64,000 nt of DNA, taken from contig CAZAQA010000012.1 of assembly GCA_964487375.1 (NCBI GenBank), positions 26,313 to 90,312 on the forward strand, in the 5' to 3' direction. A program made the position numbers and the translations under genes. Shown in pieces: positions 1 to 14,998 of this stretch. Position 1 is the stretch's first letter. Each line of letters opens with the position of its first letter. The notes under the pieces were generated by a model. It was not told the origin of the DNA and did no database searches. It saw nothing but the letters and a program-made list of their open reading frames with translations. This DNA comes from an uncultured Anaerolineae bacterium (GTDB lineage: Bacteria; Chloroflexota; Anaerolineae; JAADDB01).

Positions 1-2
1 CA

Positions 3-1478
3 CTCCTGGTCGCCGTCTTACTCCTTGGTGTCCTTTCCGCGTGTGCCACCCCAACCCCCAAAGTGGTGAAAGAGGTGGTCACTAAAGAGGTAGAAAAAGT
101 AGTTACCAAGGAAGTCGAAAAAGTGATCACCAAAGAGGTGGAAAAGGTGGTCACTAAGGAGGTGGAAAAAGTAGTTACCAAGGAAGTACAAGTCAAACCG
201 TCGACCGTGATCGAGTTCTGGACCACGGACAACGAGGAGAATCGAGTCAAACGTTACGAAGAGGTTGCAGCTCGTTATATGAAGCTCCATCCAGAGGTGG
301 AGATTCGCATCGTTCCCATCGACGAGGCAACAATTAGTCAGCGCATCGCTACAGCTCGGGCAGCGAACCGCTTGCCCGATATCGTACGCATGGGGGTGGA
401 ACGTGTAGCCGCTTTCGCTGCCGACGGCATCCTGGATGAAAATGCGGCAACGGCGACGATCGATGCTATTGGTAAGAGTGACTTTCGTGCCGGCCCTCTT
501 CACATGGTTACGGATCCGACCACAGGCAAATATGCGGCCATTCCCTTCGACGGCTGGATCCAGGCTATCTGGTATCGGTCAGATGTGTTCAAGAAGCTGA
601 ACTTGAAGCCCCCCGTCTCCTGGGACGACATCAACGCCGCGTGCGATACCTTGCCCGGCAAAGAAAATCTTCTTTACGCCCTGGTGCTCCCAACGGATCC
701 GGGGCAGAACTACCCTCACCAGGTATTCGAACAGGTCGCCATGTCCAATAATGCCTGGCCTTTCGACAAGAACGGCAACGTGACCATGAACACGCCCGAA
801 ATGGTGGAGGCTCTTCGTTTTTACACCCGCCTGCAACGCTGTGCAATGCCTGGCCCTCAATACTGGCGGGGCGCTCGTGAAGCCTATGAATTGGGCCAGT
901 CTGGCATGCTCTTCTATTCCACCTATATCATGGATGACTTGGTCGAGGGATCTGGCAAACAAGGGGGCGGCAAGGTGCAAATCGCTATACCTGACCTGGC
1001 CAAGAAATCCGGCTTTGCTCCCACAATGAAGGGCCCGAAAGGTGAAGCGACCTACGGCCAGTTGGTGACGCTGGCCATCATGAAGGGAGCGGACCCCACC
1101 GCTCAAGATGTGGTCAAGTTTTTCATGACCGACAAGAATTATCAGGATATTCTGGCCCTGGCTCCGTTCGGCAAGGTACCGGTGCTGAAGAGCGCCGTGA
1201 ACGGTTGGAAAGGCCTCAGCAAGTACTTCAAGTACTATAGCCCCGAGACCTTAGACCAGATTGCCAACGGGTACGAAACCATGCAACGATGGCTCTTCCG
1301 CCCAGATTACAATGCGGTTGAGCGTGCGACCATTGGGGATATCGAAGGACGCTTACTTATCCCTCAGGTGATTTCTAACATTGCCCTCGAGGGGTCAATG
1401 ACGCCAGAAGAAGGAGCTCAGTGGCTTCAAGAGCAAGTCCAACAGATCTACAAAGAGCGTATGAGTCAGTCTAAGTAG
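3..1478 (+). CDS. Sugar ABC transporter substrate-binding lipoprotein (family 1 SBP, YcjN-like); 5' end truncated by window edge
   Basis: The frame is open from base 3: LLVAVLLLGVLSA-C-ATPTPK (lipobox Cys at 42-44), then a VTKEVEKV repeat stalk. The SBP_bac_1 body has TPEMVEAL, YSTYI and YGQLVTL segments recalling E. coli YcjN. Two permeases follow. Confidence 0.9.
   Translation, partial: LLVAVLLLGVLSACATPTPKVVKEVVTKEVEKVVTKEVEKVITKEVEKVVTKEVEKVVTKEVQVKPSTVIEFWTTDNEENRVKRYEEVAARYMKLHPEVEIRIVPIDEATISQRIATARAANRLPDIVRMGVERVAAFAADGILDENAATATIDAIGKSDFRAGPLHMVTDPTTGKYAAIPFDGWIQAIWYRSDVFKKLNLKPPVSWDDINAACDTLPGKENLLYALVLPTDPGQNYPHQVFEQVAMSNNAWPFDKNGNVTMNTPEMVEALRFYTRLQRCAMPGPQYWRGAREAYELGQSGMLFYSTYIMDDLVEGSGKQGGGKVQIAIPDLAKKSGFAPTMKGPKGEATYGQLVTLAIMKGADPTAQDVVKFFMTDKNYQDILALAPFGKVPVLKSAVNGWKGLSKYFKYYSPETLDQIANGYETMQRWLFRPDYNAVERATIGDIEGRLLIPQVISNIALEGSMTPEEGAQWLQEQVQQIYKERMSQSK
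75..194 (+). repeat. Five in-frame 24-bp tandem units encoding V(V/I)TKEVEK
   Basis: Units gtggtcactaaagaggtagaaaaa / gtagttaccaaggaagtcgaaaaa / gtgatcaccaaagaggtggaaaag / gtggtcactaaggaggtggaaaaa / gtagttaccaaggaagtacaagtc. Confidence 0.95.
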
Positions 1479-1500
1479 CGTCTGATTCCTGTACGTTCGG

Positions 1501-1534
1501 TCTGGTGGGGGGCGCCCTTGCGCCCCCCACCAGA
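1501..1534 (+). terminator. Perfect 15-bp GC-rich stem-loop after the SBP gene (mRNA stabiliser or attenuator)
   Basis: tctggtggggggcgc-cctt-gcgccccccaccaga, about 20 nt after the stop codon. It has no U-tract. Confidence 0.7.
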
Positions 1535-1607
1535 TGATCGTCACGAACGATCCCAAGACACAACCGGTTTATCGGAGCAACGTGCCCTTTCGTGATGAGG
1601 GAGCCCC

Positions 1608-2543
1608 ATGAACACTCGAACGCGTTGGAACTCGCTGCGCTCTCAGGAAGCCCGCCTGGGCTGGCTCCTGGTGGCCCCTACAGCAATTATCGTTTTCGGA
1701 CTAATTCTTTTCCCCGCCCTTTTCAGCGTTTGGATTAGTGTCCATCAGGTGGGGTTGAACAACCTGAACGACGTCTTTCATGCTCCCTACGTAGGGCTGC
1801 GGAACTTTACCCTCGTCTTCAATGACTTCGCTTTTAAGTACCACAATCTTGCCAACATGGGGGCTTTGGTCACGACCATTGTATATTCGTTCGCGGCAAC
1901 AGCGCTGGCTGTCCTTCTGGGTTTGACAGCGGCCTTACTCCTTAACCGTCCTTTTTACGCTCGCGGTGTGGCCCGTTCGCTCCTCTTATTTCCCTACGTC
2001 GCGCCTATTGTGAGCGTGGCTTATGTGTGGCGTTGGATGCTTGACCCACGCCCCTCGGGGGTTATCAATGACCTTCTTATCCGCATGGGGGTACTCCAGC
2101 GCCCGGTAGCCTTCCTCGCCCAGCGGGGGATAGCCCTTCTCTTGGTCATCATCTTCGATGGTTGGCGCTATTTCCCCTTCGCCATGCTCATGCTCTTGGC
2201 CCGCTTGCAAGCGGTGGACCGCACCCTCTACGAAGCAGCAGAGGTCGACGGAGCCAACAATTGGCAGAAATTCCGCCACATTACCTTGCCAGAATTACGG
2301 TATGTGCTGGGAGCAGTGTTCCTCCTCCGCTTGATCTGGACGTTCAACAAGTTTGACGATATCTTTCTGCTCACTGGCGGTGGGTTTGGCACCCGAGTGC
2401 TCCCCGTCCTTGTCTATCAGTTCAGCTTCCGCACCTACAATTTTGGTAAAGGCGCCGCGGCAGCCATGATCCTAGTCGTCAGCCTGGTCGTTTTCATCGC
2501 CTTCTACGTCCAGTTTGTCATGCGCCAGACAGAGGAGGAATGA
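1608..2543 (+). CDS. Carbohydrate ABC transporter permease (MalF/YcjO-like)
   Basis: Multiple TM segments and the EAA motif LYEAAEVDGANNWQKFRHITLP. Confidence 0.92.
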   Translation: MNTRTRWNSLRSQEARLGWLLVAPTAIIVFGLILFPALFSVWISVHQVGLNNLNDVFHAPYVGLRNFTLVFNDFAFKYHNLANMGALVTTIVYSFAATALAVLLGLTAALLLNRPFYARGVARSLLLFPYVAPIVSVAYVWRWMLDPRPSGVINDLLIRMGVLQRPVAFLAQRGIALLLVIIFDGWRYFPFAMLMLLARLQAVDRTLYEAAEVDGANNWQKFRHITLPELRYVLGAVFLLRLIWTFNKFDDIFLLTGGGFGTRVLPVLVYQFSFRTYNFGKGAAAAMILVVSLVVFIAFYVQFVMRQTEEE

Positions 2544-2546
2544 GCC

Positions 2547-3452
2547 ATGAAGAATCCCGATCGTCCCATGACGCTCGTCGAGCACCTGAGAGCGCGCATG
2601 TCTCCGGGCCAGGTCGTCTTCGCCTTAGGACTAACGTTTTTCTTGGGAAGTGTACTCTTCCCTTTCTATTGGATGGTCGCCTCCTCCTTCAAAACTCAAG
2701 CTGAAATCGCCGGTCGTCACCCCGTGTACATTCCACACGCCCTCCGCATGGAGGCGTACAAGGAGTTGTTTGACCCATCCCACCCTCATTTTCAGGACTT
2801 CGCCCTCAACATCATGAACAGCCTCAAGGTTTCTCTGCCGACAGCCTTTATCGCGGTCATCCTTTCGGTCATGGGAGCTTATGCGATTGCCCGACTACAT
2901 TTTCGTGGCAAGGAGGCTCTCCTTAACGGGGTCCTGGCCGTCTACCTCATCCCCGGCGTCTTGCTCATTATCCCGCTTTTTGCTATGCTGGCTAACTTGG
3001 GAAGTAAACTAGGATTTGAAGTTCAGGATAATCTGTCGGTGCTGATCGTCACTTATCTTTCACAAACGCTACCTGTTGCTCTTTACATGCTGACCAACTA
3101 TTTTCGTACCATCCCAGACGAGATCGAGAAAGCCGCGCTCATCGACGGGTGCAGTCGGGTGGGCGTTATCTGGCGAGTGACTATCCCCCTTTCCATCCCG
3201 GCGTTGGTCTCTGTCTTTGTATACACGTTTATGATTGCGTGGAACGAATTCCTCTACGCGCTGGTCTTTCTCAACAGTCGTACAAAATTCACCATGCCCA
3301 TCAAGATACAAGCGATCTTCAACGACCCGGATCCACGACCCCACGTCGTTATGGCGGCCTCAACCATCATGACCATACCGGTTGTCATCCTGTTTCTCAT
3401 CCTGGAACGCTACCTCGAAGAAGGGCTGACAGCAGGAGGTGTAAAAGGGTAA
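2547..3452 (+). CDS. Carbohydrate ABC transporter permease (MalG/YcjP-like)
   Basis: EAA motif IEKAALIDGCSRVGVIWRVTIP and AWNEFLYAL. Confidence 0.92.
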   Translation: MKNPDRPMTLVEHLRARMSPGQVVFALGLTFFLGSVLFPFYWMVASSFKTQAEIAGRHPVYIPHALRMEAYKELFDPSHPHFQDFALNIMNSLKVSLPTAFIAVILSVMGAYAIARLHFRGKEALLNGVLAVYLIPGVLLIIPLFAMLANLGSKLGFEVQDNLSVLIVTYLSQTLPVALYMLTNYFRTIPDEIEKAALIDGCSRVGVIWRVTIPLSIPALVSVFVYTFMIAWNEFLYALVFLNSRTKFTMPIKIQAIFNDPDPRPHVVMAASTIMTIPVVILFLILERYLEEGLTAGGVKG

Positions 3453-3453
3453 T

Positions 3454-4731
3454 ATGCACATTGGCTTTGTGAGCACACGGCTGGCAGGCACCGATGGCGT
3501 TTCTCTGGAGACAGGGAAATGGGCCACGATCTTCAAGCGTTTGGGCCATCGGGTTTTCTATTGCGCGGGAGAGCTCGATCCTGACGGCCCGCCGGGCATG
3601 CTGGTCCCTAAAATGCACTTTCAGCACCCGGAAATTGAATGGATCCACGCCCATGCTTTTGGTACCACCACACCTACACCGGATCTCTATGAACGTATCC
3701 GGGTGGTTGCGACGGAACTGCGCGATTATTTGGAGCGCTTCTTGGACGCCTTCAAAATTGATGTCCTGATTGCTGAAAATGCTCTGGCCATTCCCATGAA
3801 CATACCTCTCGGAGTGGCCTTGCGCGATACGGTCACCGATGCCCAGGTTCCGGTCATCGGGCATCATCATGATTTTTACTGGGAACGAGAACGCTTTCTG
3901 GTCAACTGCATTCAGGACATTCTCGATACAAGCTTCCCCCCCAATGCGCCCAACCTATGCCATGTGACCATCAGCAAAAGCGCCCAGAAAAGCCTGGAAG
4001 AACGTCGGGGTTTGGAAAGTGAGGTCGTCCCAAACATTTTTGACTTCACCCGTGCCGCTCCTGGTCTGTCTGTATTCAGCCGGGACCTGAGAACAGCGTT
4101 AGGCCTTACAGATGACCACCTGTTTATTCTGCAGCCCACCCGCGTCGTGCGCCGTAAAGGCATCGAGCTCTCCATTGAACTCGTGCGCCGTTTACGAGAG
4201 CCTCACCATCGCCAACGGTTGTTGGGTAAGGAACCGGTGCTGGTGATTACTCACCGGGCCGGAGACGAGGGCGTGGAGTATTTAGAAGAACTCGAGCAAA
4301 AGGCCAAAGAAGTCCAAGTGCCCCTTCTTTACGCAGCCACCCGTTTCGGACCACGTTCCCGCAGGGAAGGGACACAAAAGATCTACTCTCTTTGGGATGC
4401 CTACGTCCATGCAGATTTTGTCACGTATCCAAGCCGTTATGAAGGCTTTGGTAATGCCCTTCTGGAAAGCATTTACTTTCGTTTGCCCACTCTCGTGAAT
4501 CGCTACAGCGTTTACGTCACGGACATCTCCCCTGTCGGATTCGACCTGATAGAGATCGACGGTAGGATCACAGACGAAACTGTAGAGTCCAGCATACAGG
4601 CCGTCATCGATCCTGTGCGCCGTCGACGTATGGTTGAATATAATTACTATCTGGCTATGCATCACTTTTCCTATGAAGCTATAATGCCTAAATTGCAGCG
4701 ACTTTTGACCATATGTCTGGCACAACGATGA
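3454..4731 (+). CDS. GT4 glycosyltransferase, mannosylglucosylglycerate-synthase-like (copy 1)
   Basis: IGFVSTRLAGTDGVSLE N-terminus, HHHDFYWERER, QPTRVVRRKGIE and YPSRYEGFGNA (GT-B EX7E motif). Starts 1 nt after the permease stop. Confidence 0.8.
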   Translation: MHIGFVSTRLAGTDGVSLETGKWATIFKRLGHRVFYCAGELDPDGPPGMLVPKMHFQHPEIEWIHAHAFGTTTPTPDLYERIRVVATELRDYLERFLDAFKIDVLIAENALAIPMNIPLGVALRDTVTDAQVPVIGHHHDFYWERERFLVNCIQDILDTSFPPNAPNLCHVTISKSAQKSLEERRGLESEVVPNIFDFTRAAPGLSVFSRDLRTALGLTDDHLFILQPTRVVRRKGIELSIELVRRLREPHHRQRLLGKEPVLVITHRAGDEGVEYLEELEQKAKEVQVPLLYAATRFGPRSRREGTQKIYSLWDAYVHADFVTYPSRYEGFGNALLESIYFRLPTLVNRYSVYVTDISPVGFDLIEIDGRITDETVESSIQAVIDPVRRRRMVEYNYYLAMHHFSYEAIMPKLQRLLTICLAQR

Positions 4732-6215
4732 TGGAGAGGCAAATTCAAGGAACAATCCGCCGCGACATGCCGGAACCTCTTCACGCCCAGCTAAAGGCGT
4801 TTATCCGCGAGGCTATCGAAGCAGGGCGATTGGCTCCGGGTGACCGGTTGCCCACAGAGCAGCAATTTTGTCGCCAATTCGGGCTCAGCCGTACACCTGT
4901 GCGCCAGGCTCTGCACGACCTGGTCCAGGAAGGGTTGCTCGTCCGCTTCCCCGGGCGGGGCACGTTCGTCGCCCAGCCTACATCCCGTTCCTCACACGAT
5001 CATACGCTCAAGTTGCGCGCGGTGACCGAACCGGAGTGGGCGCCGCCCTTGCAACAGGCGGCCCTCCTTTGGAACCAAGCTCACCCTCATCAACGCATCC
5101 AACTGGCTATTGAAGAGATTTCTTATCCGCGCTTGCGAGCGTATCTCATGGATCAGGTGGCTCAAGGCATTGCCCCGGATCTCTCTTTGCTGGACTCGGC
5201 CTGGGTGGCAGAATTCTCAGAATTGGGGTACTTGCTCTCCCCGGATGATATCACGTCCCACTGGGAGGAGCGGCATGCACACGCGTTGCTCGAGACCTCT
5301 TTGAGTGCCAACCGTTACCAAAATCGCCTCATGGCCATCCCCGCAAGCGTTGATATCAGCGTTCTCTGGTATCGTCGCGATTGGTTCGAAGCCGAAGAAC
5401 TTTCCCCCCCACACGATTGGGATGCGCTGGTGGCCACTGCACGACATTTCCAACGCGCAGAGGTGTCCATTCGCTACGGACAGGATACTCATGGTCTGAT
5501 CTTCGTCGCGGGTCAACGCGGCGGCGAGACAACCACTTACCAGTTGCTTCCCTTGTTGTGGGGGGCCGGGAGTGGTCTCATCTCAGGAGGTCACGTCGTG
5601 TTAGACCAGGAGGGGACTCGACGTTTCCTCACCTATCTCCACGCCTTGATTTATGAGCATCGAATTACACCGCCTGATGTCATTGGGTATAAGTGGGACC
5701 AGGCTGCACGCATCTTTGCTCGGCGTCAAGCGGTCATGGCCCTGGGGGGGCTCTACGAAATTCAGTTCATGTGCCAGGAGCGAGGGTGGGGAGAACAAGA
5801 ATTCTTGCAACGAGTGGGCATCGCACCGATTCCCGCCGGGCCAGCCGGACAATACGGCACCCTTGGCGGCATGTCTTACGCCATTTACCGCCAATCACAA
5901 CATCCCGACATTGCCCTCTCTCTCCTGGAAATGACCGCTCATCCTGAAGTCGTGCGGCTTTACTGGCGGAATACCCGTCACCATACCCCTTGGCTCACCG
6001 TACGTCCTACGCCGCGTGTTTCTCCTTTCCTGGCTGCAACCGCCCACGTTCTACAGTACGGACGTCCGCGTCCTTCTATTCCCGAATACACACGTGTGTC
6101 CGAGCAGTTCCGATGGTTGGTGGAAGAAGCTTTGCGTGGTCAGACAAATTTTGATATGCTCATTATGAGGGCTGCGGATCGAATCGCTGCTATCACACGA
6201 CTGCCGTTAACGTAA
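4728..6215 (+). CDS. GntR-family regulator fused to a cytoplasmic family-1 solute-binding domain
   Basis: N-terminal wHTH (PLHAQL...LPTEQQFCRQFGLSRTPVRQAL...GRGTFV), then an SBP_bac_1-like body (PDLSLLD, LWYRRDWF, PPHDWDAL). No signal peptide. Start placed at the ATGA overlap at 4728. Confidence 0.85.
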   Translation: MMERQIQGTIRRDMPEPLHAQLKAFIREAIEAGRLAPGDRLPTEQQFCRQFGLSRTPVRQALHDLVQEGLLVRFPGRGTFVAQPTSRSSHDHTLKLRAVTEPEWAPPLQQAALLWNQAHPHQRIQLAIEEISYPRLRAYLMDQVAQGIAPDLSLLDSAWVAEFSELGYLLSPDDITSHWEERHAHALLETSLSANRYQNRLMAIPASVDISVLWYRRDWFEAEELSPPHDWDALVATARHFQRAEVSIRYGQDTHGLIFVAGQRGGETTTYQLLPLLWGAGSGLISGGHVVLDQEGTRRFLTYLHALIYEHRITPPDVIGYKWDQAARIFARRQAVMALGGLYEIQFMCQERGWGEQEFLQRVGIAPIPAGPAGQYGTLGGMSYAIYRQSQHPDIALSLLEMTAHPEVVRLYWRNTRHHTPWLTVRPTPRVSPFLAATAHVLQYGRPRPSIPEYTRVSEQFRWLVEEALRGQTNFDMLIMRAADRIAAITRLPLT

Positions 6216-6304
6216 CGTCTGGCTCGCAGCGACACTGAACGAGGTCACCCGATAGGTACGCCATCAACCACGGCCGAACGGCCATACGTTACCAAATAGG
6301 AGGG

Positions 6305-7570
6305 ATGGATATGCCCCGCAAAGCGCGAATCGGTTTCGTCTCCACCCGTTTGGCAGGCACGGACGGGGTTTCTCTGGAAGTTATGAAGTGGGATCAGGTC
6401 CTGGCAGAGATGGGACATGAGCGTTTTTATTTTGCTGGGGAGCTCGATTGGCCCGCGGAGCGCAGTTATCTCGTCCCAGAGGCTCATTTCAAACATCCGG
6501 ACATCGAAGCAATTAATCACGATCTCTTTGATGGCTATTGGCGTGCTCCCGAGACTACAGAACAAGTGCGTCGACTTGCCCGTCACCTAAAGCGCCACCT
6601 GCACCGCTTTAGCAAGCAGTTTGGTATTGACGTCCTCATCTGCGAAAACGCGCTCTCTCTTCCTATGAACGTACCGTTGGGATTGGCCCTGACCGAATTC
6701 ATCAGCGAGACGCACATCACCACCGTCGGTCACCATCACGACTTCTACTGGGAACGAGAACGATATGCTGTCAATGCGGCCACCGATTATTTGAAAGCCG
6801 CATTTCCACCCACTCACCCTGCCATCCGCCATGTCGTTATCAACTCTTTCTCCGGACGACAGTTGGCCTTACGTACTGGAGCCAGCTCCTCCCTGATTCC
6901 TAACGTAATGGACTTCGACCACCCTCCTTTGGCTCCAGATGACTACACTGCCGACCTGCGGGGCGTATTAGACATCCCCCCAAACCATGTCTTCGTCCTC
7001 CAGCCGACGCGCATCGTTCCGCGCAAACGGATCGAGCGGGCTATCGAATTGGTGCGCCGCCTGGACATGCCCGCCGTTCTCGTCATTTCTCACGCCTCTG
7101 GAGACGAAGGGGATGCATACGCCCAGTACTTGAGAGAATACGCTCAACTGCTGAATGTACCCATACGATTTGCCTCAGGTTTGTTCGATTACCGGCGTGG
7201 CCAGGCCTCTGATGGAACAAAGATTTATGCCCTGAGCGACGCTTACCAACAAGCGGACTTAGTGACTTATCCTTCTCGCATCGAAGGATTCGGGAATGCC
7301 TTCCTGGAGACGATGTATTATAAGCGGCCTATCGTGATGAGTACCTACGAGATTTTCAAAACAGATATCCGACCCAAAGGGTTCAAGGTGATCGGTTTCG
7401 ACGAGTTTATCGATGACGAGACCGTACTCAAAGCCCGAACGGTTTTGAGGGATCCAGCCGTTGCTCAAGCAATGTTGGAGCACAATTATCAGCTTGGGCG
7501 GCGTTATTATTCTTACCGCACTTTGGAAAAACGACTGGCTGCCCTGATGAGCGAATGCTTTGGCGATTAA
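6305..7570 (+). CDS. GT4 glycosyltransferase, mannosylglucosylglycerate-synthase-like (copy 2)
   Basis: IGFVSTRLAGTDGVSLE, HHHDFYWERER, QPTRIVPRKRIE and YPSRIEGFGNA. Close paralog of 3454-4731. Confidence 0.8.
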   Translation: MDMPRKARIGFVSTRLAGTDGVSLEVMKWDQVLAEMGHERFYFAGELDWPAERSYLVPEAHFKHPDIEAINHDLFDGYWRAPETTEQVRRLARHLKRHLHRFSKQFGIDVLICENALSLPMNVPLGLALTEFISETHITTVGHHHDFYWERERYAVNAATDYLKAAFPPTHPAIRHVVINSFSGRQLALRTGASSSLIPNVMDFDHPPLAPDDYTADLRGVLDIPPNHVFVLQPTRIVPRKRIERAIELVRRLDMPAVLVISHASGDEGDAYAQYLREYAQLLNVPIRFASGLFDYRRGQASDGTKIYALSDAYQQADLVTYPSRIEGFGNAFLETMYYKRPIVMSTYEIFKTDIRPKGFKVIGFDEFIDDETVLKARTVLRDPAVAQAMLEHNYQLGRRYYSYRTLEKRLAALMSECFGD

Positions 7571-7588
7571 CTACCGGGAGCAAGACAC

Positions 7589-8851
7589 ATGCACAAACTG
7601 AGCGTGGCTATTCTTCACTATGCCGGTCCGCCTATCATTGGCGGCGTAGAGCAGACCATCTATCACCACGCTCGCCTGTTAACTGCACGCGAGTACAGAG
7701 TAAAAGTGATCGTGGGACGTGGGGAACCGTTCCACCCTCAAGTCTCCTTTCATCGCCTGGCCGAGATGGACTCCAGACACCCACGTGTGCTGGCCGTCGC
7801 CAAGGCACTTGCTGGAGGGACCGTACCCCCCGATTTTGACTCCCTACGTGATCACCTGGTTCGCTCCCTGCGCCCTCTGCTCGAGTCCGTGGATATTGCC
7901 ATCGTGCACAACGCCTTAACTCTGCACAAGAACATGCCCCTGACTGCAGCTTTGCATGAGATGAGCCGAGGTCAACGCCCCCGCCTCATCGGGTGGTGCC
8001 ACGATTTTGCCTGGAAAGATGACCTCTATACACCTGAAATGCACCCTGGATATCCATGGAATTTACTGCGTACGCCCTGGCCCAGCGTGCGTTATGTCGT
8101 CGTCTCCCAGCATCGTCGTCGGCTTCTGGCCGACCTATTGGGGCTACCACCTACAGAGATCGGCATGATTCCTCCGGGCGTCGATGCAATCGAATTCCTG
8201 AAACTGGAGGAAAAATCTAAGCGTCTGGTCCAGCGCCTTCACCTTCTGGAGGCTGCTCCCCTCCTCCTCCTGCCGGCCCGAATCACGCGCCGCAAGAACA
8301 TTGAAATGGGAATCCGCATCGTAGCGGCGTTGAAAGAACGAATGGACAATCCTGTATTAGTCATTACCGGCCCCCCGGGCCCTCACAACCCGACCAATAT
8401 CGCCTACTTGAACCAACTACACCGTCTCTGCCGAGAACTTGAGGTGGAAGACCGGGTTCATTTTCTGTACGAACAAGGCGGAGAACAGCGGCCTCTTCGG
8501 GTTACTGCTGCCATGATGGGCGATCTGTACCGGCTGGCCGATGCTCTACTTTTCCCTTCCCGCCGCGAGGGGTTTGGGATCCCTGTCCTGGAAGCCGGCT
8601 TGGCCCGCATTCCTATTTTCGCTGCCGACATTCCTCCTGTTCGGGAAAGTGCCGGTCCATGTGCTTATACGTTCGACCCCGACGGCGCGCCTGAGCCCGT
8701 GGCAGACATGATTGCTCGAGTGTTGAAGGAGGGGACTATCTACCCAATGCGCCAACGCGTGTTGCGCCACTTCACCTGGCAACAAATCATCGATGAGCGT
8801 GTCATCCCTCTTCTCATGGAGGTGGCAAGTCATGACTATTCCGCAGGATGA
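7589..8851 (+). CDS. GT4 glycosyltransferase (copy 3, divergent)
   Basis: ILHYAGPPIIGGVE, WCHDFAW, PARITRRKNIE and FPSRREGFGIPVLEA. Confidence 0.8.
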   Translation: MHKLSVAILHYAGPPIIGGVEQTIYHHARLLTAREYRVKVIVGRGEPFHPQVSFHRLAEMDSRHPRVLAVAKALAGGTVPPDFDSLRDHLVRSLRPLLESVDIAIVHNALTLHKNMPLTAALHEMSRGQRPRLIGWCHDFAWKDDLYTPEMHPGYPWNLLRTPWPSVRYVVVSQHRRRLLADLLGLPPTEIGMIPPGVDAIEFLKLEEKSKRLVQRLHLLEAAPLLLLPARITRRKNIEMGIRIVAALKERMDNPVLVITGPPGPHNPTNIAYLNQLHRLCRELEVEDRVHFLYEQGGEQRPLRVTAAMMGDLYRLADALLFPSRREGFGIPVLEAGLARIPIFAADIPPVRESAGPCAYTFDPDGAPEPVADMIARVLKEGTIYPMRQRVLRHFTWQQIIDERVIPLLMEVASHDYSAG

Positions 8852-10823
8852 CCCCCAGGAGAGACAAAAGGATCCGCAGTGGCACGACTGGAATACCCCC
8901 CCCATGACCATGCGCAAAGTCGTGCTTCCTTTGGGAAGTCGTGAGGAAGCTGAAACGTTGTTCCCAGTCGCAGACGCGCTGCGTCGGGGATTACGAGCTC
9001 ATCTTATCGTCTTGCACGTGGTCTCAGTTCCTGAAGGCCATTCCCTCAGCGAGGCTACAGCAAAGGCCATGAGGGTCCGCCAAGAGCTGGACACGTTTTT
9101 GGAGGAACGCGGGTATGTCGGTACACGGGTACGCGCGATGGTGCGGGTAGCCCATGAGTTGTGGGATGGCATCTGGGAGGTTGTGGAACAGGAGCAGGCA
9201 GACGTCCTCATCCTGGGCTGGGAAGGCAACGGGCTGGTAGAGACAGCCATGGGAAGCCTGACCGACCCTCGCCTTGCCTATCCCCCTTGCAATCTCGTCT
9301 TGTTACGTCCCGGAAAAGAGTTGAAGCGTGGGACCGACTGGCAAGGAGTCAAGCACATTCTTCTGCCAATACGGGGTGGACGCCAGGCGGGCTGGCCATT
9401 GCGAGTGGCAGAAGCCCTTGGGGACAGCCTCAACGCGTCCATTACTTTGCTTCACGTCACAGGAGAAGGAGTCGCCGATGAAGAAGAACGAGAGTTCGCC
9501 GAGATTACTCCGGCCTTGCGAGCCTTACGCCACGTGACCCAGACGGTTATGGCCGTGGGAGCCATTCCCCAAATCATCTTAGAAGAGGCACAACGTCATC
9601 AGGTGCTTGTTATGGGCGCTCCCAGCCGCACAGAAGCCCAGAGCGATTGGATGGGCCCTATCCTGGAAACCGTAGCCCAACACACAAACGCGACCTTAAT
9701 CGTGGCTAAAGAGGCTTCTCCTAAGGCCCAAATGGCCCGGACCATTTGGGAGGAAACCTTAAAACACTTGTCCCAGGAACCAGAGCCTATCCAACCGCCC
9801 GAGACGCCCATTACGGTCATCGTCGACAAATGGTTTGCGGAGAACACGTTTCACAGCAAGGAATTTGAGGAACTGGAACGACTTCTGGAATTGAAAGAAG
9901 AGCAGGGAGTCACTATCAGCCTGGGATTGCCCGCCCTGAACGAGGAGGAGACCGTGGGCAATGTCATCCAGACCATCAAAGGGGCTCTCATGGAAAAGAT
10001 CCCCTTACTCGACGAGATTATCCTGGTGGACTCCGGATCGGTGGACTACACGCGCGAGATTGCAGCCGACTTGGGCATTCCGGTCTACATTCACCAGAAA
10101 GTCCTACCTCAATATGGCGCCTATCACGGCAAAGGAGAGGCCCTCTGGAAAAGCCTCTATCTCCTCAAGGGAGATATTCTCGCCTGGATCGACACGGACA
10201 TTAAGAATATCCACCCACGCTTTGTGTACGGCATCCTTGGCCCTCTTTTACGCAACCCCCGAATCAAGTACGTGAAAGGGTTTTACCGTCGTCCCTTACG
10301 TGAAGGGGGCAAATTGCTTGCAGGAGGGGGAGGACGGGTCACGGAGCTGACAGCGCGACCGTTGCTCAACCTGTTTTTCCCAGAGCTTTCTGGTCTTATC
10401 CAGCCTCTCTCGGGAGAGTATGCTGGCCGGCGTGAAGTCCTGGAAAGACTTCCCTTTTTCACCGGATATGGAGTCGAGACAGGGCTTTTGATCGACATAT
10501 TGGAAGCTTTTGGTCTAAGTGCCATTGCCCAAGTAGATCTGTTAGAACGTATCCACCACAATCAGCCGCTGCCCTCCCTCTCCAAAATGTCTTTTGCGAT
10601 TATCCAGGTGGTCATTCGTCGTCTAGAAGACCGCCATAAAATACACCTGATGGAGGACTTCAACCGAAGTATGAAGCTGATCCGTTACGAACCAGGCCAT
10701 TACTACCTGGAAACCGTTGAGATCCGGGAGCGGGAACGCCCTCCCATCATCACTCTGCCCGAGTATCGTCAGAAACGCGGCCTGAAAACCGACGACACCT
10801 TCGCCGGTCCCACCCGATTCTGA
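8832..10823 (+). CDS. gpgS: Glucosyl-3-phosphoglycerate synthase with two N-terminal universal stress protein (USP) domains
   Basis: C-terminal GT-A domain: LPALNEE, VDSGSVD, GKGEALWKSL, DTD, GGRVTELTARPLL, QPLSGEYA, GYGVETGLL, RIHHNQ. The N-terminal half has two USP-like modules (VVLPLG...ADVLILGW; ILLPIRG...QVLVMGA). Start chosen at ATG 8832 after GGAGGTGG. Confidence 0.85.
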   Translation: MTIPQDDPQERQKDPQWHDWNTPPMTMRKVVLPLGSREEAETLFPVADALRRGLRAHLIVLHVVSVPEGHSLSEATAKAMRVRQELDTFLEERGYVGTRVRAMVRVAHELWDGIWEVVEQEQADVLILGWEGNGLVETAMGSLTDPRLAYPPCNLVLLRPGKELKRGTDWQGVKHILLPIRGGRQAGWPLRVAEALGDSLNASITLLHVTGEGVADEEEREFAEITPALRALRHVTQTVMAVGAIPQIILEEAQRHQVLVMGAPSRTEAQSDWMGPILETVAQHTNATLIVAKEASPKAQMARTIWEETLKHLSQEPEPIQPPETPITVIVDKWFAENTFHSKEFEELERLLELKEEQGVTISLGLPALNEEETVGNVIQTIKGALMEKIPLLDEIILVDSGSVDYTREIAADLGIPVYIHQKVLPQYGAYHGKGEALWKSLYLLKGDILAWIDTDIKNIHPRFVYGILGPLLRNPRIKYVKGFYRRPLREGGKLLAGGGGRVTELTARPLLNLFFPELSGLIQPLSGEYAGRREVLERLPFFTGYGVETGLLIDILEAFGLSAIAQVDLLERIHHNQPLPSLSKMSFAIIQVVIRRLEDRHKIHLMEDFNRSMKLIRYEPGHYYLETVEIRERERPPIITLPEYRQKRGLKTDDTFAGPTRF

Positions 10824-10854
10824 AACAGTCAAGGAGGCACCTGAATCCGAAAAC

Positions 10855-11445
10855 ATGAACAAACCAACGAGACTCATCCTCGTCCGTCATGGCGAGACCG
10901 ATTGGAATGCAGAGGGACGTTATCAGGGTCAAGCCGATCCGCCCTTGAATCGACGAGGGCGAGAGCAGGCTCAGGCACTAGCTGCCGCCTTGCAACAAAA
11001 GGGGGTAGACGTTATTTACAGCAGCCCCTTGAAACGCGCCTGGCAGACTGCCGAAGTCGTGGCCCGAGCTGTCCGTGCGCCGCTCTTCCCGGAACCACGC
11101 CTGATGGAGATTCACCAGGGAGAATGGGAAGGAAAACGCGTGGGTGAGATTGCTCGCGAGTATCCCCAGACTTTCCATCAATGGGAGGAAGACCCATGGG
11201 CCACCCAGATCCCAGGTGGGGAAACACTGGCAGAGGTCCAACAGCGAGTCTATGCGGCTGCGGATGACATCCTGGCCCGGCATCCGGGGAAAACCGTCGT
11301 CCTGGTCACGCATCGCACGCCCATTGCCATGCTCAAAATCCGCTATCAGGGCCTCGATCCCACACAGGTTCGTAAAATCGAGCTCCCAAACACGTTTTGG
11401 GAAGAAATCCTGGTACCTACACCAAGCGACGAGGAAAACGAATGA
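10855..11445 (+). CDS. Histidine phosphatase, probable glucosyl-3-phosphoglycerate phosphatase
   Basis: RHGETDWN motif, YSSPLKRA, GEWEG and VTH. Directly downstream of gpgS. Confidence 0.8.
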   Translation: MNKPTRLILVRHGETDWNAEGRYQGQADPPLNRRGREQAQALAAALQQKGVDVIYSSPLKRAWQTAEVVARAVRAPLFPEPRLMEIHQGEWEGKRVGEIAREYPQTFHQWEEDPWATQIPGGETLAEVQQRVYAAADDILARHPGKTVVLVTHRTPIAMLKIRYQGLDPTQVRKIELPNTFWEEILVPTPSDEENE

Positions 11446-13238
11446 ACGCGACCATGCCCCCCCTTCACCCGACAGCGGAAAAGCGTATTCAGGATCTGCT
11501 GGCATTCCTCTACGGTTCCCAAATCGGAAAAGAAACCTGGCAGCAACTACGACCAAGACTGCTCACATTCCGCCAGCGTCACCCCTACTTGAGCGAAAAC
11601 GTACCTCCCCCAGAAGAACGATTGACAGAGCGCGAGGCACTCCTTGTCACCTACGCCGATCAGATCAGTACCAAAGGTCGTCCTCCCTTGCAAACGTTGG
11701 GCGACTTTCTCGAGGAAAGACTGAAAGGCACATTTAGCGGTGTCCACTTGCTTCCTTTCTTCCCGTACTCTTCTGACGATGGATTTTCCATTATTGATTA
11801 CCGAGAAGTCTATCCGCCGTTTGGTACATGGGCCCACGTGGAGCGCATCGGCCGCAGTTTCCGACTCATGTTTGATGCAGTGATCAACCATATCTCACGA
11901 GAGAGCGCCTGGTTTCAGGCTTTCCTCCGGGGTGAAGAGCCTTATCGAGATTATTTCATCGTGGTCGACCCAAAGACAGACCTATCTCAAGTTGTCCGCC
12001 CACGGGCCACCCCACTACTCACACCGGTAGAAACATCTGAGGGAACGAAGTACGTGTGGACGACCTTCAGTGCGGACCAAATCGACTTGAACTACCACAA
12101 TCCACGTGTGCTCCTCGATATACTCGACGTCCTCTTGTTCTATGTGGAAAAAGGGGCCACTGTCATCCGGCTGGACGCCATCGCTTACGTGTGGAAGGAA
12201 CTCGGCACTTCGTGCATCCACTTGCCACAAACGCATGCTCTGGTGAAGCTATTCCGGGCAGTTTTCGACGCGGTTGCCCCTGGAGTCCTCCTCATTACGG
12301 AAACAAATGTCCCCCACAAAGAAAACATAAGCTACTTCGGCAATGGATACGACGAAGCCCAACTGGTCTACAATTTCGCACTTCCGCCGCTGGTCTTACA
12401 CACGTTCCGCACGGGAAATGCCCGCCGTCTGAGTGAGTGGGCCGCCACATTGTCCACGCCTTCGGAGACCACGACCTTTTTCAACTTCATCGCCTCTCAC
12501 GACGGCATTGGTGTCCTGCCAGCAAAAGGCATCCTTACAGAAAAAGACATTCAGGCGCTGGTAGAGATGACGCTCGCTCATGGGGGACAAGTGTCCTACC
12601 GGGCTCTCCCTGACGGCAGCAAAAGCGTATATGAACTAAACATTGTCTTGTATGACGCCCTTAATGATCCGGCGCACCCGAATCTCGAGTTGGACGTACG
12701 GCGATTCTTGGCTTCTCAAGTCATCATGCTCTCCCTGGTGGGCGTTCCAGGAGTATATGTACACAGTGTCTTGGGCTCACGCAATTGCCATCACTGTGTC
12801 GCAGCACGCGGGTATCCGCGCGCCATTAATCGAGAGAAGTTTCGCCTTGAAGACCTGCGCCACCTTCTCGACGACCCCGGCCAGCCTCCATATCACGTCT
12901 TCCGAGGCTACCGCCGTTTGTTAGAATTGCGCAGGGAACAACCTGCCTTTCATCCTAACGCCTCCCAACACATCCTGCTGGTAGACGAGCATCTATTCGT
13001 GCTGGTTCGTGTGCCCAAGGACGAAAGGCGCCTGCTTATCGCCATCGTGAATGTGACAGGAGGAAGCAAAAAGGTGGAGCTCGATCTGAAGGCCCATCAT
13101 GTGCCTTTGTTTGACAGATGGGACGATATCATCGAGGGCAAGAGGTACAGGCTCACAAAAGGCGTGCTCCAGCTCGTCCTCGAGCCTTATCAGTTTATGT
13201 GGTTGACACCGGCAAAGGAAGCCCGCGGGGGCCCATAG
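11442..13238 (+). CDS. GH13_18 sugar phosphorylase, probable glucosylglycerate phosphorylase (YcjM-like)
   Basis: VHLLPFFPYSSDDGF, DAVINH, WTTFSADQIDLNY, nucleophile RLDA, acid/base TETN, ASHDGIG and loop-A YELN. Start at the ATGA overlap at 11442. Confidence 0.85.
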   Translation: MNATMPPLHPTAEKRIQDLLAFLYGSQIGKETWQQLRPRLLTFRQRHPYLSENVPPPEERLTEREALLVTYADQISTKGRPPLQTLGDFLEERLKGTFSGVHLLPFFPYSSDDGFSIIDYREVYPPFGTWAHVERIGRSFRLMFDAVINHISRESAWFQAFLRGEEPYRDYFIVVDPKTDLSQVVRPRATPLLTPVETSEGTKYVWTTFSADQIDLNYHNPRVLLDILDVLLFYVEKGATVIRLDAIAYVWKELGTSCIHLPQTHALVKLFRAVFDAVAPGVLLITETNVPHKENISYFGNGYDEAQLVYNFALPPLVLHTFRTGNARRLSEWAATLSTPSETTTFFNFIASHDGIGVLPAKGILTEKDIQALVEMTLAHGGQVSYRALPDGSKSVYELNIVLYDALNDPAHPNLELDVRRFLASQVIMLSLVGVPGVYVHSVLGSRNCHHCVAARGYPRAINREKFRLEDLRHLLDDPGQPPYHVFRGYRRLLELRREQPAFHPNASQHILLVDEHLFVLVRVPKDERRLLIAIVNVTGGSKKVELDLKAHHVPLFDRWDDIIEGKRYRLTKGVLQLVLEPYQFMWLTPAKEARGGP

Positions 13239-13322
13239 ACATCCACGACAATCACCCTCCCCGTGCTGCTTCGAAATGCCCGACTTGCTCTAAGAGGCGT
13301 TCTCGACTCGCGGAGGTTAAGG

Positions 13323-14996: not shown

Positions 14997-14998
14997 GG

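Follow-up and report, generated by a model that had tools for sequence, protein, structure and literature searches.

The first 13,238 nucleotides of the window (the whole 64,000-nucleotide stretch of DNA analysed here) carry an operon-like cluster of an uncultured Anaerolineae bacterium, which, judging from gene content, probably serves the metabolism of glycosides based on the stress-protectant sugar glucosylglycerate (GG) and joins an uptake module (<1–6215) to a core module (6305–13238). The uptake unit consists of a binding protein, two permeases, an A-type GT4 glycosyltransferase (GT4-A) and a regulator with a GntR domain and a binding-protein fold, while the core consists of GT4-B, GT4-C, a USP::GpgS fusion, a phosphatase and a GG phosphorylase. 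Sequence comparison gives good support both to the family assigned to each gene and to the modular synteny. A GG metabolism, as put forward in the original prediction, is well founded, and extension of GG and its import are plausible further functions.

Plus-strand genes run unbroken across positions 1–13238, and the genes to the right, encoding a gamma-glutamyltranspeptidase (13323–15134) and a DUF2079 protein (14999–17311), are both on the minus strand, in agreement with the co-directional cluster originally described. Its gene count of eleven had to be corrected, as ten genes, the first for the binding protein and the last for the GH13 enzyme, were found in the window and also by independent gene calls on three contigs (L002–L004), which are the source organism's own and encode cluster proteins 99–100% identical to those of the window. 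All four junctions proposed earlier are correct: the stop of permease B (3452) is followed by the GT4-A start (3454); the regulator start (4728) and GT4-A stop (4731) overlap by 4 nt, the USP::GpgS start (8832) and GT4-C stop (8851) by 20 nt, and the GH13 start (11442) and phosphatase stop (11445) by 4 nt, overlaps that suggest translational coupling. Only two intergenic gaps are sizeable, one of 129 nt (1479–1607) and one of 89 nt (6216–6304). The binding-protein gene is the first gene and is clipped by the window edge; it starts about 18 nt further left on contig L002, where the complete gene occupies positions 5586–7082. Since transposase-like fragments and then minus-strand genes lie upstream on this contig, the cluster starts at the binding-protein gene. 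Promoter and terminator scans of the cluster gave sites no more numerous than in shuffled sequence, and that the layout exceeds chance follows from synteny conserved in other genomes rather than from these scans. The 89-nt gap, a feature without strand at the boundary of importer unit and GpgS core, is a possible internal promoter region, although a sigma-70-like site was not found in it and its fold is nothing special. At this same boundary the unit stops after the regulator in loci L093 and L094, and GT4-A directly abuts GT4-B in L005, L008–L010 and L088. The cluster may well be co-transcribed. The window contains no gene for an ATPase, NDP-sugar synthesis or glycerate kinase.

The last gene (11442–13238, plus strand) encodes a GH13_18 enzyme whose identity as a glucosylglycerate phosphorylase (GGaP, YcjM-type) is strongly and well supported by homology and motifs. 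The protein is 42% identical to the characterised E. coli YcjM over its full length (465 bits), compared with at most 194 bits to sucrose phosphorylases in the PDB; its catalytic RLDA, TETN and SHDG motifs are conserved, and it has both signatures defined for GG phosphorylases, the TETN motif and the loop-A Tyr-Glu (PMC7178133), which bears out the earlier assignment. Among the GH13 genes beside an MggS-like GT4 or USP::GpgS, with the E. coli YcjM reference included, the loop-A Tyr-Glu is present in 45 of 45 and TETN in 43 of 45, which ties the MggS-like GT4 family to GG.

The USP::GpgS fusion (8832–10823, plus strand; Pfam Usp twice and Glycos_transf_2) is composed of two universal-stress-protein domains (about 8832–9800) and a GT81 glucosyl-3-phosphoglycerate synthase domain (about 9801–10823), and occurs in at least 120 protein clusters. 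The GT81 domain reaches 379 bits with the curated NCBIfam equivalog NF010496 and passes its threshold of 262, and its DxD, GKGEALW and RVTEL motifs align with those of solved GpgS structures; the GpgS identity proposed at the outset is thereby a strong and well-supported reading of the sequence. In the PDB the domain matches Rubrobacter MpgS/GpgS (3f1y) with 268 bits and mycobacterial GpgS with 217–228 bits. The adjoining gene (10855–11445, plus strand) encodes the phosphatase anticipated beside GpgS, a histidine-phosphatase superfamily enzyme with an RHG motif (His_Phos_1, 212 bits). Its nearest solved structure is a Hydrogenobacter phosphoserine phosphatase (146 bits), against 72 bits for M. 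tuberculosis GpgP (4pz9), and it is named GpgP mainly because of its position, which makes this a weaker assignment; the phosphatase follows USP::GpgS in L005, L009, L010, L036, L060 and L090–L092. A precedent for a histidine-phosphatase GpgP is Rv2419c (PMC3240985), and the proposed substrate is glucosyl-3-phosphoglycerate or its extended phospho-glycoside.

Three GT4 genes, all on the plus strand and all keeping the EX7E motif, lie in the cluster. GT4-A (3454–4731) is a retaining GT-B glycosyltransferase of an MggS-like family, with 237 bits to NF041101 (MggS; threshold 640) in an alignment spanning the full length, the EX7E sequence EGFGNALLE, and an AlphaFold model (pLDDT 91) whose best Foldseek matches are BshA, sucrose-phosphate synthase, MshA and WaaG. 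GT4-B (6305–7570), 45% identical to GT4-A, is likewise a full-length homologue of MggS (241 bits, threshold 640). GT4-C (7589–8851) is a generic retaining GT4 (Pfam Glyco_transf_4 and Glycos_transf_1), which reaches only 50 bits with the MggS model (threshold 640) and 66 bits with its top NCBIfam match, an MSMEG_0565-like model (threshold 260); it is 26% identical to GT4-A, and both have an HDFxW motif. The predicted label "MggS-type" goes too far: GT4-A and GT4-B are homologous to MggS over their full length, but the scores of all three fall well below the MggS threshold, and it has been reported that the only tested member of the wider MggS-like family, from R. baltica, had no activity in the MggS assay (PMC3736172). 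GT4-A belongs to an A clade that is nearly confined to Chloroflexota and importer-linked, while GT4-B belongs to a B clade that falls together with homologous sequences of other phyla and accompanies GpgS; eight of the nine Chloroflexota B-type genes adjoin GpgS and GT4-C, and GT4-C is directly 5' of USP::GpgS in all core operons sampled. Among 42 Chloroflexota A-type GT4 genes, a transporter is adjacent in 21, GG phosphorylase in 21 and GpgS in 11. Of the three extension enzymes originally proposed, the three genes are thus real, but extension itself is a presumed role, and since GT4-A is part of the importer unit and not of the synthesis core, "extension enzyme" is for it one of two live readings.

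The uptake unit begins with a YcjN-family substrate-binding lipoprotein of a CUT1-type ABC importer (1–1478, plus strand, edge-clipped; full protein 498 aa; Pfam SBP_bac_1/SBP_bac_8), with a lipoprotein signal whose lipobox L-S-A-C lies at 33–44 (reading frame 3 from base 3). A 24-nt tandem repeat of about 4.6 copies (75–188, plus strand; Tandem Repeats Finder) encodes a (V/I)TKEVEKV linker between lipid anchor and binding domain. Among solved structures, 8ula (142 bits), E. coli YcjN 8vqk (135) and 7v09 (129) form one tight group nearest to this protein, the next match having 46 bits. Permease A (1608–2543) is YcjO-like and permease B (2547–3452) YcjP-like, both on the plus strand with BPD_transp_1 domains; permease B has 230 bits to YcjP, along its full length, versus 139 bits to a MalG model. 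The GG importer proposed earlier accordingly has YcjN, YcjO and YcjP as nearest relatives, while GG or a GG-derived glycoside is its presumed ligand; in a screen of sugars that did not include GG, E. coli YcjN showed no binding (PMC11543891). Between the genes for the binding protein and permease A lies a perfect 15-bp G+C-rich hairpin without a T tract (1501–1534, plus strand, inverted repeat, 100% complementary), whose RNA fold z-score of −3.96 was equalled by none of 200 shuffles. Its probable effect is greater stability of the upstream mRNA or partial attenuation of transcription, so that more binding protein than permease would be made. The unit ends with a one-component regulator (4728–6215, plus strand), in which Pfam places a GntR winged-helix domain at aa 25–86 and a MalE-like SBP_bac_1 sensor, without signal peptide, at aa 112–407; in the PDB, the sensor matches MalE3 (6dtq, 99 bits) and the DNA-binding domain YvoA. 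This architecture is found in at least 256 protein clusters, whose organism-named sources are mostly Chloroflexota, and the regulator adjoins GT4-A in L093 and L094 too. In contrast, the E. coli ycj regulator YcjW is LacI-type.

Across a survey of 92 related loci, the window is seen to join two units that are each common alone in Chloroflexota, the GpgS core operon being common in Anaerolineae. The gene order of the core, with one or two MggS-like GT4s ahead of GT4-C and then USP::GpgS, is repeated in at least 11 further loci (L005, L008–L010, L036, L060, L088–L092), nine of which also have the phosphatase and/or phosphorylase, with none in the available sequence of L008 and L088. The importer unit stands alone in L093 and L094, and in 15 loci a binding protein 62–77% identical to that of the window adjoins GT4-A and usually also GG phosphorylase. 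Other neighbours of the MggS-like GT4 family are also GG genes, namely two GpgS types, an MggB-like HAD hydrolase and glycerate kinase, besides a GgH/MgH-like GH63 hydrolase that scores 367 of the 550 bits required by the model for glucosylglycerate hydrolase. For GT4-A, USP::GpgS and the regulator alike, the closest homologues with a named source organism come from Chloroflexota metagenome genomes, mainly Anaerolineae, as the predicted membership in this phylum implied.

In the proposed model, the GT81 domain would convert NDP-glucose and 3-phosphoglycerate to glucosyl-3-phosphoglycerate, from which the neighbouring histidine phosphatase would remove phosphate to give GG. GT4-C and GT4-B would add one or two more hexoses to yield a compound like mannosylglucosylglycerate (MGG) or a larger glycosyl-GG, with acceptor and donor presumed for each of the three GT4s. 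The YcjM-type phosphorylase would set the pool size through the reversible reaction of GG and phosphate to glucose-1-phosphate and D-glycerate. Co-transcription of a synthase and a phosphorylase for the same compound would require post-transcriptional control against futile cycling, and the USP domains fused to GpgS are probably an activity gate responding to a stress or nucleotide signal. The lipoprotein and two permeases, served by an ATPase gene elsewhere, would import GG or a GG-derived glycoside, a reading supported by the grouping of the binding protein with YcjN, whose operon begins with a GG phosphorylase gene; GT4-A would act on the compound taken up, and the regulator would sense a sugar and control transcription. 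Several observations count against parts of this model, among them the low MggS scores and the inactive R. baltica homologue, the negative sugar screen of YcjN, and the lack of ATPase, NDP-sugar synthesis and glycerate kinase genes in the window. In addition, the nearest solved GT81 relative, from Rubrobacter, has dual mannose/glucose specificity, and M. tuberculosis GpgP is a more distant relative of the phosphatase than a phosphoserine phosphatase is.

Known systems resemble the cluster in part. The MGG pathways of Petrotoga mobilis and Rhodopirellula baltica (GpgS, MggA, MggB, MggS) share with it a GpgS-made acceptor and full-length MggS-homologous GT4s, and R. baltica, with its operon mggS-mggB-sucrose-phosphorylase-like, also has a GH13_18 phosphorylase gene beside an MggS-like gene (PMC3736172). 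Besides the low MggS scores (237–241 bits), the cluster differs in having no MggA-like gene (GT4-C is 23–24% identical to candidate MggA-like neighbours), a histidine-phosphatase type enzyme instead of a HAD-type MggB, a USP-fused GpgS of the actinobacterial GT81 type, three GT4s instead of one, and an importer and regulator. In E. coli, the ycj operon opens with the four genes ycjM-ycjNOP, in which GG phosphorylase is accompanied, as here, by two permeases and a binding protein of the YcjN family, the window proteins being 42%, 27%, 38% and 43% identical to YcjM, YcjN, YcjO and YcjP, respectively. However, GpgS, GpgP and GT4 were not found in the E. coli pspA-ycjQ stretch, and the other products of the ycj operon are reported to be kojibiose phosphorylase, guloside dehydrogenases, an epimerase and YcjV, the ATPase (PMC11543891); no ATPase gene occurs in the window. 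The mycobacterial/Rubrobacter GG initiation (GpgS Rv1208 and GpgP Rv2419c) uses the same GT81 GpgS type and an RHG-motif histidine phosphatase; in the window the two genes are adjacent within an operon-like cluster, GpgS has two N-terminal USP domains, Rv2419c is not the closest relative of the phosphatase, and methylglucose lipopolysaccharide tailoring genes were not found.

The same gene order is known from malE-malF-malG-treT-trmB of Thermococcus litoralis and Pyrococcus furiosus, which has a binding protein, two permeases, a GT4 and a sugar-sensing regulator, and where TreT, a GT4 that works reversibly, probably acts on the imported sugar; other sugars, a TrmB regulator and no linked biosynthetic core distinguish that cluster. 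The shared gene order lends weight to the tentative alternative that GT4-A serves salvage or catabolism rather than extension, which is possible but finds less favour with us: the importer would take up glycosyl-GG, such as MGG from other microbes, and GT4-A, like TreT or sucrose synthase, would run in reverse (glycosyl-GG and NDP to NDP-sugar and GG) or as a GT4-type phosphorylase, retaining trehalose phosphorylase being also a GT4, before GG phosphorylase released glucose-1-phosphate and glycerate. The start of GT4-A 1 nt past the permease stop codon and its overlap with the regulator gene, the solitary units of L093 and L094 with no GpgS nearby, the A-type neighbour counts (transporter and GG phosphorylase at 21 each, GpgS at only 11), a LacI-type repressor in 15 loci, typical for catabolic operons, and a GgH/MgH-like hydrolase directly after GT4-A in five loci are consistent with it. 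However, the closest relatives of GT4-A head the biosynthetic core without a transporter in L005, L008–L010 and L088, the synthetic direction is usual for Leloir transferases, and the importer could equally provide GG as the acceptor of GT4-A.

Also weighed was whether the product of the GT4s is, instead of a small solute, an oligo- or polysaccharide primed by GG, comparable to methylglucose lipopolysaccharide with its reducing-end GG. The pair of actinobacterial-type GT81 GpgS and histidine-phosphatase GpgP is that of mycobacterial methylglucose lipopolysaccharide initiation (PMC3240985), and up to three GT4s exceed the need of any known GG solute; the mycobacterial MSMEG_0565-type match of GT4-C is weak, however, methyltransferase, acyltransferase and GH57 branching enzyme were not found in the cluster or conserved core, and the core's GG phosphorylase works on a free disaccharide-like solute, which makes such a polymer unlikely. 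It is very unlikely that a rearrangement merely placed two unrelated units side by side, namely a generic sugar importer plus regulator and an independent GG operon, with no substrate in common. Their joined layout in the source organism's contigs only, the transposase-like fragments directly upstream, the 89-nt gap, and importer genes that are 62–77% identical to their counterparts in distant Chloroflexota, against only about 50% for GT4-A of these bacteria, suggesting separate histories, would fit this; but many other genomes place the same importer family by full-signature GG phosphorylase genes and GT4-A, E. coli ycjM-ycjNOP shows the same phosphorylase–importer pairing, and sister lineages have GT4-A relatives heading the GG core. 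Least probable is that the GT81 product is mannosyl-3-phosphoglycerate and the cluster concerns mannosylglycerate. The top solved homologue, from Rubrobacter xylanophilus, was deposited as a mannosyl-3-phosphoglycerate synthase (with its 268 bits exceeding those of mycobacterial GpgS) and takes both sugars (PMC3240985), yet the domain passes the GpgS equivalog model, the neighbouring phosphorylase has strict GG phosphorylase motifs in a pairing that holds in the sampled core operons with a GH13 gene, the cluster lacks a GT55 MpgS, and a search of the window for a GgH/MgH-like hydrolase gave no match.

The GG-based reading thus remains preferred, with a changed emphasis. The heavy regulation first noted stands in that the USP fusion and the GntR::binding-protein regulator are both real, but both are widespread in the phylum. 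The conserved synteny holds for the core and the importer unit separately, while the joined layout occurs, among the 92 loci, only in contigs L002–L004, and the unusually complete cycle is likewise reduced to the rarity of this junction.

The cluster at window positions 1–13238 is an unbroken run of + strand genes; eleven had been counted in the original prediction, whereas ten are found, and the same ten occur on three public contigs with 99–100% identical cluster proteins. The four tight junctions claimed there are all correct: a 1-nt gap separates the genes at 3452/3454, and neighbouring genes overlap by 4 nt at 4728/4731, by 20 nt at 8832/8851 and by 4 nt at 11442/11445. [quoted passage not shown]

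The GH13_18 enzyme that ends the cluster (11442–13238) is firmly predicted to be a GG phosphorylase (EC 2.4.1.352). It aligns over its full length with E. coli YcjM, a characterised GG phosphorylase, at 42% identity and 465 bits, and no PDB chain entered as a sucrose, sucrose-6F-phosphate or glucosylglycerol phosphorylase exceeds 194 bits. It has been reported in a review of GH13_18 that GG phosphorylases carry a (T/S)ETN motif and a Glu replacing Gln in loop A (PMC7178133); both signatures are present, with LITETNVP of the window aligned to IITETNVP of YcjM, and SVYELN to SPYEIN. Across 45 GH13 sequences, 44 from the surveyed loci and E. coli YcjM as reference, Tyr-Glu stands in loop A in all 45 and TETN is kept in 43, and these signatures in GT4-linked GH13 genes tie the GT4 family to GG by association. 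The GT4-linked GH13 gene in an Akkermansia genome (L087, 11287–12996; L-numbers denote related loci or contigs fetched for comparison) has TDPS for TETN, QLDA for RLDA and SQDG for SHDG, and this copy may be inactive or of other activity; another (L026, 3671–5389) has TEAN in place of TETN. In the core operon of L090, a glycerate kinase gene (DUF4147 + MOFRL; 13352–14752) without counterpart in the window directly follows the GG phosphorylase gene, which makes the route from GG to glycolysis complete there.

The assignment of GpgS to the gene at 8832–10823 is also among the firm sequence-based predictions. The GpgS domain forms the C-terminal half of a 663-aa fusion and scores 379.3 bits against the curated equivalog threshold of 262 (NCBIfam NF010496, GT81 of actinobacterial type), the match covering model positions 5–305 of 307. 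The GT81 motifs checked were DxD, GKGEALW, RVTEL and HxN; in HMMER comparison with 7p5l, 4y6n, 3ckj and 3f1y, the stretches IDTD, GKGEALW, GGGRVTELTARPL and HHNQPL are in register. Characterised enzymes are about 300–390 aa long, and the present protein, with its 663 aa and two N-terminal Usp domains, does not correspond to a stand-alone GpgS domain. As read directly from the sequence, the nucleotide-binding motif G-x2-G-x8-G-S is nearly canonical in the first of the USP domains, and the second is degenerate. The fusion is found in at least 120 protein clusters, whose sources, where an organism is named, are Anaerolineales genomes; in the literature searched, no paper paired GpgS with universal stress proteins, and nothing linked GG or the fusion to Anaerolineae.

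The histidine phosphatase (10855–11445) scores 212 bits to PF00300 (His_Phos_1), with the RHG motif in LVRHGETDWN. Its nearest solved relatives are the Hydrogenobacter phosphoserine phosphatase (146 bits) and PhoE (113 bits), ahead of M. tuberculosis GpgP (72 bits), which is thus not its nearest characterised relative. [quoted passage not shown] The phosphatase gene lies directly downstream of the USP::GpgS gene in L005, L009, L010, L036, L060, L090, L091 and L092, and this conserved place after GpgS suggests, as a weaker assignment, a GpgP role.

Two of the three GT4 enzymes, GT4-A (3454–4731) and GT4-B (6305–7570), are MggS-like and 45% identical to each other; the third, GT4-C (7589–8851), is a generic GT4 enzyme, 26% identical to GT4-A. 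All three miss the threshold of 640 bits of the MggS model NF041101, with 237.2 bits for GT4-A, 240.9 for GT4-B and 49.9 for GT4-C, the comparison with true MggS being one of NCBIfam model score only; homologues from Verrucomicrobia, Thermotogae and Pirellulaceae genomes likewise score only 238–254 bits. Residues 1–416 of GT4-A align to model positions 1–429 of 431, GT4-B matches over the full length, and the EX7E motif is kept in all three enzymes (EGFGNALLE in GT4-A). The structure model of GT4-A (pLDDT 91) has an ordinary retaining GT-B fold, with BshA, sucrose-phosphate synthase, MshA and WaaG nearest in Foldseek, and a PDB sequence search at E ≤ 0.001 gave no hit; the fold search on this model points to a generic GT4 fold and to no specific function. 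It has been reported that the MggS homologue of R. baltica does not form mannosylglucosylglycerate (MGG) from GDP-mannose and GG (PMC3736172); we infer that this homologue belongs to the wider MggS-like family, from Pirellulaceae loci with the same neighbour genes.

GT4-C was also considered as an MggA orthologue. It is 23–24% identical (48–56 bits) to the MggA-like candidates encoded in Planctomycetota and Balneolales loci, a match no better than that to GT4-A, and the orthology is therefore rejected. In non-Chloroflexota loci (L031, L032, L050–L052, L055, L062, L064–L068, L080, L083, L086; e.g., L051, 13107–15527), the MggS-like GT4 gene occurs with a gene for a GT4-like protein of about 495 aa, a candidate MggA without NCBIfam hit. 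An MggB-like HAD hydrolase is also encoded in most of these loci, and some carry a gene for a Methanococcoides-type GpgS or an M20-like peptidase; the loci may be unannotated MGG operons.

The MggS-like family was marked by the motif HHHDFYWE, which gave at least 598 matching stretches from many phyla in a species-representative genome collection; the window proteins were mapped onto 92 fetched loci, and GT4 neighbours were clustered over 87 loci. These neighbours are overwhelmingly GG genes: by loci, GH13_18 enzymes were counted in 37 of 78, GgH/MgH-like GH63 hydrolases in 5, MggB-like HAD hydrolases in 11 and LacI repressors in 15, and two types of GpgS occur among them. In a rough neighbour-joining tree the family splits into an A clade, almost confined to Chloroflexota, and a B clade, which consists of the second GT4 of core operons and homologues of other phyla. 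Among 42 Chloroflexota A-clade genes, 21 lie near a transporter (within 4.5 kb on the same strand), 21 near a GG phosphorylase and 11 near a GpgS; B-type genes of Chloroflexota lie beside GpgS and GT4-C in eight of nine cases. At least 11 other loci share the core order of one or two MggS-like GT4s, GT4-C and USP::GpgS; a phosphatase and/or phosphorylase is present in 9 of 11, and none in the sequence examined for L008 and L088. Two close relatives (L093 and L094), whose regulators are 60–67% identical to that of the window, have the importer unit alone with no GpgS nearby, in the order binding protein, two permeases, one extra gene, GT4-A and regulator. This extra gene between permease B and GT4-A, without counterpart in the window, codes in L093 (7534–8709) for a protein of 391 aa that hits Glyco_trans_2_3 weakly, and in L094 (6787–7299) for one of 170 aa assigned to no family.

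Among the fetched loci, the joined layout was seen only in contigs of the window's own organism. In distant Chloroflexota, the importer genes share 62–77% identity with those of the window but GT4-A only about 50%, and this mismatch, together with transposase fragments on L002, another contig of the organism, fits rearrangement or gene transfer. On L002 the cluster is preceded by these transposase-like fragments and then by minus-strand genes (DUF2061, UvrB), and in the window it is followed by genes on the minus strand, which encode gamma-glutamyltranspeptidase and a DUF2079 protein, so that it is bounded at both ends. The fragments are several + strand, DDE transposase-like ORF pieces directly upstream of the binding-protein gene (L002, 3329–5448), with no Pfam hits in the precomputed table, and they suggest a decayed insertion sequence at the left border. 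Further along the window, and unrelated to the cluster, a 623-aa Schlafen AlbA_2 protein (59 bits; 22512–24383) is encoded between ABC exporter and PMT_2 glycosyltransferase genes.

The importer begins with the gene of the YcjN-family binding protein (<1–1478), which starts left of the window edge: the ORF listing began it at an internal GTG at 63, frame 3 is open to the edge, a lipoprotein signal has its L-S-A-C end at 33–44, and the gene is complete on L002 (498 aa). Directly after the lipobox, a 24-nt unit repeated in tandem about 4.6 times (75–188) codes for a linker of (V/I)TKEVEKV sequence. The three best PDB hits of this protein, YcjN (8vqk), 7v09 and 8ula, score 129–142 bits and the next 46 bits; 7v09 is reported to be 75% identical to YcjN (PMC11543891). 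Permease A (1608–2543) is 38% identical to YcjO, and permease B (2547–3452) is 43% identical to YcjP, scoring 230 bits to YcjP against 139 bits to the MalG model; binding protein and both permeases are thus nearest to YcjN, YcjO and YcjP. No ligand of E. coli YcjN was identified in a published screen, which left out GG (PMC11543891). No MalK-type ATPase is encoded anywhere in the 64-kb window, and a MalK-like ATPase is carried by seven related loci; a search of the same 64 kb found no LacI regulator, GgH/MgH hydrolase, Methanococcoides-type GpgS or MggB-like HAD hydrolase. What looks like a separate ribose-type ABC system lies at 42095–44071, where a 658-aa protein with two Peripla_BP_4 stretches, a duplicated sugar-binding domain, has BPD_transp_2 permease genes on both sides.

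At least 256 protein clusters make up the family of the regulator (4728–6215); where the source names an organism, they are mostly from Chloroflexota, and they are often labelled 'extracellular solute-binding protein'. The nearest solved relative of its sensor domain is MalE3, not YcjN; an origin of the sensor as a copy of the cluster's binding protein was rejected, as the two match only locally, over 39 residues at 33 bits. As regards transcription, a sigma-70 promoter scan of 1–13600 gave 3 sites against 6.8 expected from shuffled sequence, and an intrinsic-terminator scan gave 14 against 12.8; with counts not above the shuffled ones, these scans carry no information on co-transcription. An Rfam search of 1–13600 at E ≤ 0.1 gave no riboswitch and no leader RNA. 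The gap between the binding-protein and permease A genes holds a G+C-rich hairpin at 1501–1534 (UCUGGUGGGGGGCGC / GCGCCCCCCACCAGA), whose 15 bp pair perfectly; it lacks a T tract and has a fold z-score of −3.96. No other inverted repeat of 14 nt or more with arms no more than 40 nt apart occurs in 1–13400.

In the proposed mechanism, GpgS and the phosphatase would most likely make GG, which GT4-C and GT4-B would then extend to an MGG-like or larger glycoside, with either GG or the phosphorylated intermediate as the acceptor of GT4-C; the GG phosphorylase would interconvert GG with glucose-1-phosphate and glycerate and so set the GG pool. A cluster centred on mannosylglycerate instead is unlikely: the nearest solved homologue of the GT81 domain is the dual-specificity MpgS/GpgS of Rubrobacter, which takes both sugars, but the phosphorylase is of the GG type, and this co-operonic context favours glucose as the transferred sugar. 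GG or one of its glycosides would be taken in by the importer and then serve GT4-A as substrate. A salvage or catabolic role of GT4-A, by reverse transfer or phosphorolysis, is favoured by its fixed place within the importer unit, by the LacI repressors, GG phosphorylases and GgH-like hydrolases frequent beside A-clade genes, and by the Thermococcus TreT cluster, which has the gene order of the window's importer unit; GT4-A relatives at the head of transporter-free core operons favour extension. A GgH/MgH-like GH63 hydrolase gene adjoins the A-clade GT4 in L013, L015, L016, L017 and L085 (e.g., L085, 8646–10010), directly downstream in four of the five and directly upstream in L085. This hydrolase scores 347 bits to Pfam MGH1-like and 367 bits to the NCBIfam glucosylglycerate hydrolase model, against a threshold of 550; permease genes accompany it in all five loci, and within the fetched stretch a MalK-like ATPase is encoded in four and a GG phosphorylase likewise in four.

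Taken jointly, an undescribed GG-saccharide solute or a glycosyl-GG salvage route is a tentative proposal, which we hold to be rather doubtful. As a solute system, the Anaerolineae core might make an undescribed GG tri- or tetrasaccharide, with the fused USP domains switching GpgS. As a salvage system, the A-clade GT4, the YcjN-family importer and the GG phosphorylase might form an unrecognised energy-conserving route, in which imported glycosyl-GG would be split by reverse transfer or GT4-type phosphorolysis, followed by GG phosphorolysis; such a route, if true, would also reveal which class of ligands, long sought, YcjN-family proteins bind.

It has been reported that GG phosphorylase genes lie beside GG genes (PMC7178133) and that the MggS-like gene of R. 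baltica lies beside a GH13_18 gene (PMC3736172). The cluster is known in parts, namely GpgS with GpgP, and E. coli ycjM beside ycjNOP. Literature searches gave no description of the conserved Anaerolineae core, in which two or three GT4s accompany a USP-fused GpgS, nor of an importer unit that includes an A-clade GT4 and a GntR::binding-protein regulator, nor of the joined form.

GG and its derivatives guard microbes from salt, heat and nitrogen stress. To our knowledge, few GG-extending enzymes are known, and the only assayed member of the MggS-like family outside Thermotogae is inactive. The cluster makes three questions assayable, namely what MggS-like GT4s do, which ligand YcjN-family proteins bind and what role the USP::GpgS fusion has, and it could yield new enzymes for the synthesis of glycoside osmolytes. 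For the Anaerolineae, which are abundant and mostly uncultured, a conserved GG-glycoside operon would give a first hypothesis of stress protection.
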